Positions 4,452 through 4,481 of a stretch of DNA of 64,000 bases are shown piece after piece. Origin of the DNA: an uncultured Thermoanaerobaculia bacterium (GTDB lineage Bacteria > Acidobacteriota > Thermoanaerobaculia > Multivoradales > J023); contig CAZMEL010000001.1 in NCBI GenBank assembly GCA_964565225.1, positions 1,424-65,423 of the forward strand, in the 5' to 3' direction. A program made the position numbers and the translations under genes. Position 1 is the first letter of the stretch. Each line of letters starts with the position of its first letter. The notes under the pieces are model-generated. The model saw nothing but the letters and a program-made list of their open reading frames with translations. It was not told where the DNA came from and made no database searches.

Positions 4452-4481
4452 CTTGACAATCTGGACCAAGTTGGTCCAGTA
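4452..4481 (+). promoter_or_regulatory. Candidate promoter -35 box (TTGACA, 4452..4457) directly followed by a perfect 9-1-9 palindrome CTGGACCAAGTTGGTCCAG (4460..4478). Likely an operator in the divergent eCIS / iron-transporter control region.
   Basis: The palindrome was verified base by base. The intergenic region 4081..4560 is AT-richer than the flanks. A weak -10 candidate, CAGTAT, lies at 4476..4481. Confidence 0.35.

Follow-up and report, generated by a model that had tools for sequence, protein, structure and literature searches.

The window analysed here is the whole stretch of 64,000 nt, part of a 456-kb metagenome scaffold. Near its left end, two divergent operons are separated by an intergenic gap of 499 nt (4081..4579) with a GC content of 53%, compared with 66% for the window. 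Gene calls and Pfam matches agreed with the first-pass annotation of this DNA, which had placed a minus-strand eCIS operon on one side of the gap and a plus-strand Fe(III) importer on the other. In the eCIS-like operon, the sheath gene is followed by gp19-type tube, baseplate, Pvc16_N, AAA ATPase, gpV and gp25-like genes. The gene for the substrate-binding protein (SBP) of the importer starts at TTG 4580(+), and an identical gene call is present on the source scaffold. Its homologues carry the name Fe(3+) ABC transporter substrate-binding protein. The nearest of these share no more than 78% identity and come under the names Acidobacteriota, Thermoanaerobaculia or Holophagales, and a genome-contig search with the SBP protein returned only distant homologues from other phyla (at most 66% identity). 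The features of the locus are:

2506..4080, minus strand: phage-type sheath gene, head of the eCIS-like operon
4453..4458, plus strand: -35 hexamer TTGACA of the Fe(3+) ABC importer promoter, from the window sequence and conservation
4458..4482: full 25-nt candidate site, AATCTGGACCAAGTTGGTCCAGTAT
4461..4479, no strand assigned: palindrome and candidate Rrf2-type (RisR/IscR-type-1-like) operator, from sequence, family alignment and PWM
4463..4477: conserved core GGAC-N7-GTCC (GGAC-CAAGTTG-GTCC)
4477..4482, plus strand: -10-like hexamer CAGTAT, its first three bases within the palindrome
4495..4513: extended 19-bp form of the Fur-type box, GTTGAGATTCTGTCTCGAT, a 9-1-9 dyad
4496..4512, no strand assigned: Fur-type box TTGAGATTCTGTCTCGA, one mismatch to TTGAGA-N5-TCTCAA
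4566..4571, plus strand: ribosome-binding site GAGAGG, 8 nt 5' of the TTG start codon
4580..5641, plus strand: Fe(3+)-type ABC substrate-binding lipoprotein, 353 aa (Pfam SBP_bac_6/8/11/1), the first gene behind the promoter module described below
about 5686..7329, plus strand: permease, next after the substrate-binding gene
about 7326..8414, plus strand: ATPase, after the permease

Across the promoter region the window sequence reads cacTTGACAatCTGGACCAAgTTGGTCCAGtatcg. It includes a 19-bp palindrome at 4461..4479, CTGGACCAA-G-TTGGTCCAG (that is, CTGGACCAAGTTGGTCCAG), with 9-nt arms that are perfect about the centre G4470. The first-pass annotation had described these perfect arms about a central G correctly, while its coordinates for the palindrome (4460..4478) and for TTGACA (4452..4457) were all one base too far to the left. 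Only two bases (AT) lie between TTGACA and the palindrome, and the spacer from TTGACA to CAGTAT is 18 nt. With the promoter assigned from conservation, the dyad occupies the -35/-10 spacer and shares 3 nt with the -10, since CAG (4477..4479) is common to the palindrome and CAGTAT; the overlap with the -10 position that had been proposed is therefore real. CAGTAT matches TATAAT at three of six bases. This is too weak for the rule of the simple sigma-70 and terminator scan, which accordingly called nothing in 3900..4800. The conserved core is flanked by AT-rich bases, AAT at 4458..4460 and TAT at 4480..4482, although the right flank is also part of the -10, so that constraint there is confounded.

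A Fur-type box lies 17 nt 3' of the palindrome and was absent from the first-pass annotation. The promoter therefore probably contains two operators. The palindrome itself had been judged not to be a Fur box, and this is correct: it is GC-rich (GGACC) and unrelated to the Fur-box dyad.

Palindromes with perfect 9-nt arms and loops of 0-5 nt occur four times in the window, compared with 3.9 +/- 2.3 in first-order Markov simulations in which the window's base-to-base transition frequencies were preserved. About 1% of the simulated 499-nt gaps hold one such palindrome. By itself, the palindrome is not significant window-wide. Its perfection arises at the chance rate, so the case for function rests on conservation in other sequences. 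No second copy with up to three mismatches was found in the 64-kb window, and an Rfam scan of 3800..4900 at E<=1 gave no matches.

Orthologues of the SBP were gathered by protein identity. Their upstream regions show CTTGACAA, then CAGACT or CAGAAT 17-18 nt on, and then TTGAGA-N5-TCTCAA. The element CTTGACAA occupies the corresponding position ahead of orthologous SBP and TonB-receptor genes (loci L003, L004 and L005) and is also found in two fur promoters that were fetched by protein (L186 and L187). These shared upstream elements indicate that TTGACA is the -35 of a plus-strand promoter and that the palindrome fills its spacer. The Fur-type box is conserved 3' of the promoter in L003, L004 and L005, and the L005 box is that of the window save for one base. 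In L005, a TonB-receptor-PepSY-SBP operon, GGAC-N7-GTCC is also present in the register of the window. In L003 and L004, which are two of the closest SBP orthologues, the left half-site is absent and the right half is degenerate, so the dyad appears to be dispensable in some lineages.

Metagenomes were then scanned with the pattern CTTGACAA-N25-45-TTGAGA-N5-TCTCAATA, in which the palindrome was not asked for. The scan matched 98 stretches, compared with a chance estimate of only a few. A spacer dyad in the exact register of the window is carried by 30 of the 84 distinct matches. The order of the elements in this composite module is a -35 TTGACA, the dyad TCnG(G/T)ACy-N5-rGTCCnGA, a -10 cAGAAT and the Fur-type box TTGAGA-N5-TCTCAA. 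The dyad-class consensus is CTTGACAA-TCnG(G/T)ACy-N5-rGTCCAGaAT with the box 11-14 nt further on; in this consensus the dyad flanks read AATC...GAAT. All dyad-class promoters, like the window, have an 18-nt spacer. Their -10 follows the consensus cAGaAT, in which A2, A5 and T6 hardly vary. The other 54 matches have no dyad, 17-nt spacers, a TATAAT-like -10 and the box directly behind it. The box consensus at free positions is ttATTGAGAyTnArTCTCAATAA.

Alignment of the family (29 distinct promoters) showed almost no variation in the arms, the left TC and the right AG-AT, whereas the central five bases are free. Constant arms about a free centre are characteristic of a site recognised by a protein dimer. 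The inner AA-G-TT of the window, which is the source of its "perfect" palindrome, is not conserved; conservation is confined to GGAC-N7-GTCC and the flanks. Because these inner bases vary freely in relatives, the string TGGACCAA-N-TTGGTCCA, proposed earlier for a genome search, would miss nearly all real sites. Most examples of the module came from a pattern that demanded a Fur-type box, so the frequency at which dyad and box co-occur is biased. The complete module is also present at both fur loci fetched by protein, L186 (a 7.66-Mb contig) and L187, so the family is not a product of the pattern used in the scan.

The first gene behind the module is a Fur-family regulator in 11 of the 30 loci. 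These proteins match Pfam FUR with E about 1e-30 and are 35-40% identical to E. coli Fur. The other first genes encode TonB-dependent receptors, a secreted protein of about 310 aa and, in the window, the Fe(3+) ABC importer. As the genes behind it are iron-related, the module is taken to be an iron-regulon promoter. In the Thermoanaerobaculia-like loci L186 (10001..18419) and L187 (10001..18830), fur is the first gene of an operon that also encodes an FTR1/FtrD-like iron permease, MacB/FtsX ABC components, ApbE, an FMN-binding protein and a porin. The secreted protein of about 310 aa has no Pfam match, is possibly located in the outer membrane, and is the first gene in 11 of the 30 module loci (L158 at 2437..3447; also L096, L109, L111, L133, L137, L146, L148, L157, L176 and L185). 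It is followed by a CxxCH cytochrome-like ORF and may represent an uncharacterised iron-regulated family.

A 25-nt PWM was built from the iron-promoter dyads with the window left out. The window site scored 25.9 bits, and the next best position in the window, on either strand, scored 7.4 bits. In unrelated genomes, only 8 of 1.8 million positions reached 12 bits or more. Two look-alikes in the gap were set aside. GTAC-N7-GTAC at 4193..4207 (inside GCCGTACGGC), which lies nearer the sheath gene, was rejected with a score of -17 bits. The half-site-like stretch at 4399..4415 (TCCACCCACCTGGTCCA), where the half-site TGGTCCA lies within a direct repeat GTCCACC-N6-GTCCACC, was treated as chance, as the PWM finds nothing there.

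REP-like elements have many copies per genome and lie mainly outside promoters. Such a reading of the palindrome was ruled out by its one copy per 64 kb and by the lack of a second PWM site. A separate repeated element, GGTAGGACTGCGGATGTCCCACC, was seen in several copies each in L092, L123, L140, L141 and L167 (in L092, for example, at 1503, 2679, 3443 and 3735). This element, which lies outside promoters, resembles a REP-type repeat from an unrelated organism and includes GGAC-N7-GTCC only by coincidence.

The dyad resembles the sites of Rrf2 regulators, and it was therefore predicted to occur on the regulator's own promoter in the same lineages. When this was tested, the dyad was found on the Rrf2-suf promoters in all six related Acidobacteriota loci (four distinct sequences). 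The core there is G(G/T)AC-N7-GT(C/A)C with AT-rich flanks, on promoters of the form TTGACA-N17-TATGAT or TAAAGT, and the empirical background of core matches is 0.005 per 100 nt. These sites read AAAAyAGGAC...GTCCTGTTT and score 13-21 bits with the iron-promoter PWM. In L187, a frameshifted Rrf2 gene heads the suf operon 8 kb from the module-bearing fur promoter, and in its promoter, TTGACA-N17-TAAAGT, the site AAAATAGGAC-TAAAGTT-GTCCTGTTTT spans the -10. In the five further loci, L188-L192, the dyad sits on the -10 or just behind a TTGACA-N17-TATGAT promoter. L188 belongs to the same genome as L186, and L187 holds both the module and the Rrf2-suf site; L191 and L192 come from a Thermoanaerobaculia and an Acidobacteria MAG, respectively. 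The long-read assemblies contain many frameshifts (L187 at 1895..2400 and 8347..9629; L190 at 4536..8197) that split the Rrf2, SufB/D and citrate synthase genes, and the L187 Rrf2 protein was pieced together from three reading frames.

Homologues of the L187 Rrf2 protein match Pfam Rrf2 and exceed the curated NCBIfam cut-off for TIGR02944 (SUF system Fe-S cluster assembly regulator). Three of their Cys residues line up with the IscR ligands, and the names they carry are Thermoanaerobaculia or Acidobacteriota. The acidobacterial proteins score under the IscR equivalog cut-off and far under the RirA cut-off. No Fur-type box was found near the Rrf2-suf promoters; even the best match there departs from it at four positions or more. 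With the dyad alone at Rrf2-suf, the box alone at the 54 other scan promoters and both in the module, the two elements are independent of each other. Searching the 64-kb window by tblastn with IscR and NsrR detected no Rrf2 gene, and IscR, NsrR, Fur, DtxR and MerR regulators were likewise not found there by tblastn.

Among characterized operators, the closest is that of RisR. The holo form of this Myxococcus xanthus regulator protects T(t/g)GAC-N7-GTCC(t/a), with AT-rich flanks, at the -35/-10 of isc and suf promoters (PMC9973013). RisR represses these promoters and is inactivated by iron chelation and by oxidants or redox cyclers, and its Rrf2 subgroup, IS6, includes Acidobacteria (PMC9973013). 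TGGAC-N7-GTCCA in the window fits the RisR consensus exactly, and both sites overlap the -35/-10 of a sigma-70 promoter. Moreover, RisR heads an Fe-S biogenesis operon and has the dyad on its own promoter, as is the case for acidobacterial Rrf2-suf. The known RisR targets, however, are isc and suf only, whereas the dyad here stands at iron-acquisition and fur promoters with a Fur-type box at a fixed distance, and the acidobacterial half-site, unlike that of RisR, tolerates GTAC for GGAC.

The type-1 site of E. coli IscR (ATASYYGACTRWWWYAGTCRRSTAT; PMC3899308) is similar to the window site in its 25-bp length, its GAC-N7-GTC core, its AT-rich ends and its overlap with the promoter, and cluster-loaded IscR acts there as a repressor. 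By our own count, the window site agrees with the type-1 consensus at 18 of 25 positions; accepted P. aeruginosa sites agree at 68% and 76%. In contrast to the type-1 site, its centre is not AT-rich, and the target genes differ. RirA of the Rhizobiales is an Rrf2 Fe-S protein that represses iron-uptake promoters when iron is replete (PMC1698941, PMC6748827). The RirA box, TGA-N9-TCA (PMC1698941), the IscR type-1 site and the window site all have the geometry GA-N9-TC, but the outer bases are TGA in the RirA box and GGA in the window site. RirA also replaces Fur in Rhizobiales, whereas the candidate Rrf2 site coexists with a Fur-type box.

The classical Fur box is AATGATAATnATTATCATT (PMC1698941). 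The element at 4495..4513 is likewise a 19-bp 9-1-9 dyad with a T-n-A centre, and it is identical to the classical box at about 12 of 18 positions by our own count. Both precede iron-uptake and fur genes. The element differs in its half-site, ATTGAGAyT, and in the position of the dyad-class box 3' of the -10, at about +5 to +25. Its nearness to the classical consensus and its occurrence before fur genes are the reasons for calling it a Fur-type box.

Several other binding sites were compared and rejected. A sigma-54 -24/-12 promoter was dismissed by inspection, as GC is lacking at -12 and the centre varies, and the LexA, HAIR, NtcA and FadR motifs do not fit the spacing. The DtxR/IdeR iron box is a 19-bp 9-1-9 palindrome, TWAGGTWAGSCTWACCTWA, that is conserved through its centre. 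Its format is the same as that of the palindrome, but by inspection only 7 of 19 bases match, and the central 5 nt of the palindrome are unconserved. An OmpR-type response regulator and a HAMP/HisKA histidine kinase are encoded at 8411..10488(-), directly 3' of the iron ABC operon and convergent with it. This two-component system was rejected as the binder because regulators of its type bind direct repeats and the other module loci are without it.

From these comparisons, the palindrome is probably the operator of a dimeric winged-helix Rrf2 repressor that would control the Fe(3+) importer promoter jointly with Fur. The binder is most likely the "SUF system regulator" of this organism, an Fe-S-cluster protein related to Myxococcus RisR and E. 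coli IscR, although the iron-promoter and Rrf2-promoter dyads could be read by different Rrf2 paralogues. As the candidate Rrf2 site is within the -35/-10 region and the Fur-type box is just downstream, iron uptake in these Acidobacteriota seems to be governed from a single promoter by two iron sensors. In cells with abundant Fe-S clusters, an Rrf2 dimer carrying its cluster is predicted to sit on 4458..4482, to occlude the spacer and the -10 and thereby to exclude RNA polymerase. At 4495..4513 (about +5 to +25), Fur-Fe(2+) would obstruct the first part of the transcribed region. Under iron scarcity, or when oxidants destroy the clusters, both repressors would depart and the importer would be transcribed, so that derepression would require low Fe(2+) together with low Fe-S cluster status. 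The centres of dyad and box are 31-34 bp apart, or about three helical turns, which would place the two proteins on the same face of the DNA. Many genomes have fur behind the module, so that the amount of Fur would be set by the Rrf2 protein as well.

The first-pass annotation had proposed a repressor operator occluding a promoter. The operator-in-promoter layout is borne out by its conservation upstream of orthologous iron genes. Repression at the palindrome, and the signal that would be sensed, we infer from the geometry and from the homologous RisR system, and the weak -10 would also fit an activator-dependent promoter. In a broader form, the proposal is that Thermoanaerobaculia-like Acidobacteriota have recruited the Rrf2 regulator of Fe-S assembly as a genome-wide co-repressor of iron acquisition, acting through a composite promoter that also drives fur; we regard this as evenly balanced between true and false.

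The palindrome lies in a gap shared by two operons, and for this reason the operator had been thought able to gate either operon. Palindromes also have no intrinsic direction. That it also, or instead, gates the divergent eCIS operon (sheath start at 4080) is now very unlikely. The centre of the dyad is 390 nt from the sheath start codon, and the dyad sits inside a plus-strand promoter with the conserved order -35, dyad, -10, Fur box and gene. The module is thus directional. It stands before iron genes at about 30 other loci that have no eCIS gene nearby, and homologues of the sheath and tube were found in none of them. Neither inspection nor the scan revealed a minus-strand -35/-10 pair around the dyad, and the second core match, at 4193..4207, is the one that scored -17 bits. 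It is similarly improbable that the divergent eCIS operon responds to iron through this control region. The best reading is that the dyad points at the importer, with nothing linking it to the eCIS operon.

Other alternatives concern what, if anything, binds the dyad. A protein of another family might bind the dyad, either a MerR-type activator acting on an over-long spacer or an unrelated dimeric repressor, with the Rrf2 likeness being coincidental. In the mer, soxS and copA promoters, a dyad follows directly after TTGAC in the spacer. The window dyad fills its spacer in the same way, the 18-nt spacer is over the optimum and the -10 is weak. Nevertheless, spacers of MerR-type promoters are typically 19-20 nt, no MerR-like gene is present in the window and only one was seen across all loci, and at Rrf2-suf the dyad lies over the -10 or 3' of the start site, where only repression makes sense. 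The presence of the dyad at six of six Rrf2 gene promoters, with PWM scores of 13-21 bits, also argues against a different family, and we consider one unlikely. Binding of both dyads by Fur or a Fur-family paralogue, which would make the palindrome a part of an extended Fur operator, has little probability. The dyad does accompany a Fur-type box in every iron promoter found, and fur genes lie behind the module; this co-occurrence, however, was partly forced by the search pattern. Neither TTGAGA nor any other hexamer of the Fur family resembles the half-site GGACC, the Rrf2-suf promoters have the dyad without a Fur-type box, and the 54 Fur-box promoters have no dyad. Finally, that the spacer holds a functionless chance palindrome is hardly credible, even though four such palindromes are found where 3.9 are expected, the sequence is a single copy, and L003 and L004 manage without the dyad. 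Over 29 distinct promoters, in front of different genes and in different organisms, the arms are kept while the centre varies, and the leave-one-out PWM gives the window site 25.9 bits. The differing downstream genes and variable centres also counter the notion of one recently spread sequence. A site for an Rrf2 repressor thus remains the preferred reading of the dyad.

Rrf2 operators of such shape, Fur boxes and the overlap of IscR and Fur regulons are already known, the last for example in Caulobacter (PMC11475020). The literature search found no Fur box or Rrf2 regulon described for Acidobacteriota, and no fixed composite promoter with a spacer Rrf2 dyad and a Fur box that also drives fur. 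Acidobacteriota are a dominant and hardly cultured phylum of soil and sediment in which iron regulation is essentially uncharacterised. The occurrence of two cis-elements in a promoter of fixed geometry gives a handle for predicting iron regulons in MAGs. It also yields the testable claim that an Fe-S sensor tied elsewhere to isc and suf (RisR) governs iron uptake and fur expression. If true, its role would be similar to that of RirA in Rhizobiales, but alongside Fur and not in its place, and iron uptake would be switched on only when free Fe(2+) and Fe-S cluster status are both low. For the window, the analysis gives the control region to the Fe(3+) importer and takes away the connection to the contractile injection system that had been suggested.

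Further downstream in the window, 10653..42224 contains genes for an MMPL-family transporter, a methyltransferase and a LolA-like/DUF1329 protein, and then four giant plus-strand ORFs (2791, 2239, 2153 and 1449 aa). The giant-ORF region is probably an NRPS/PKS cluster and, given its location near an iron importer, its product is possibly a siderophore.
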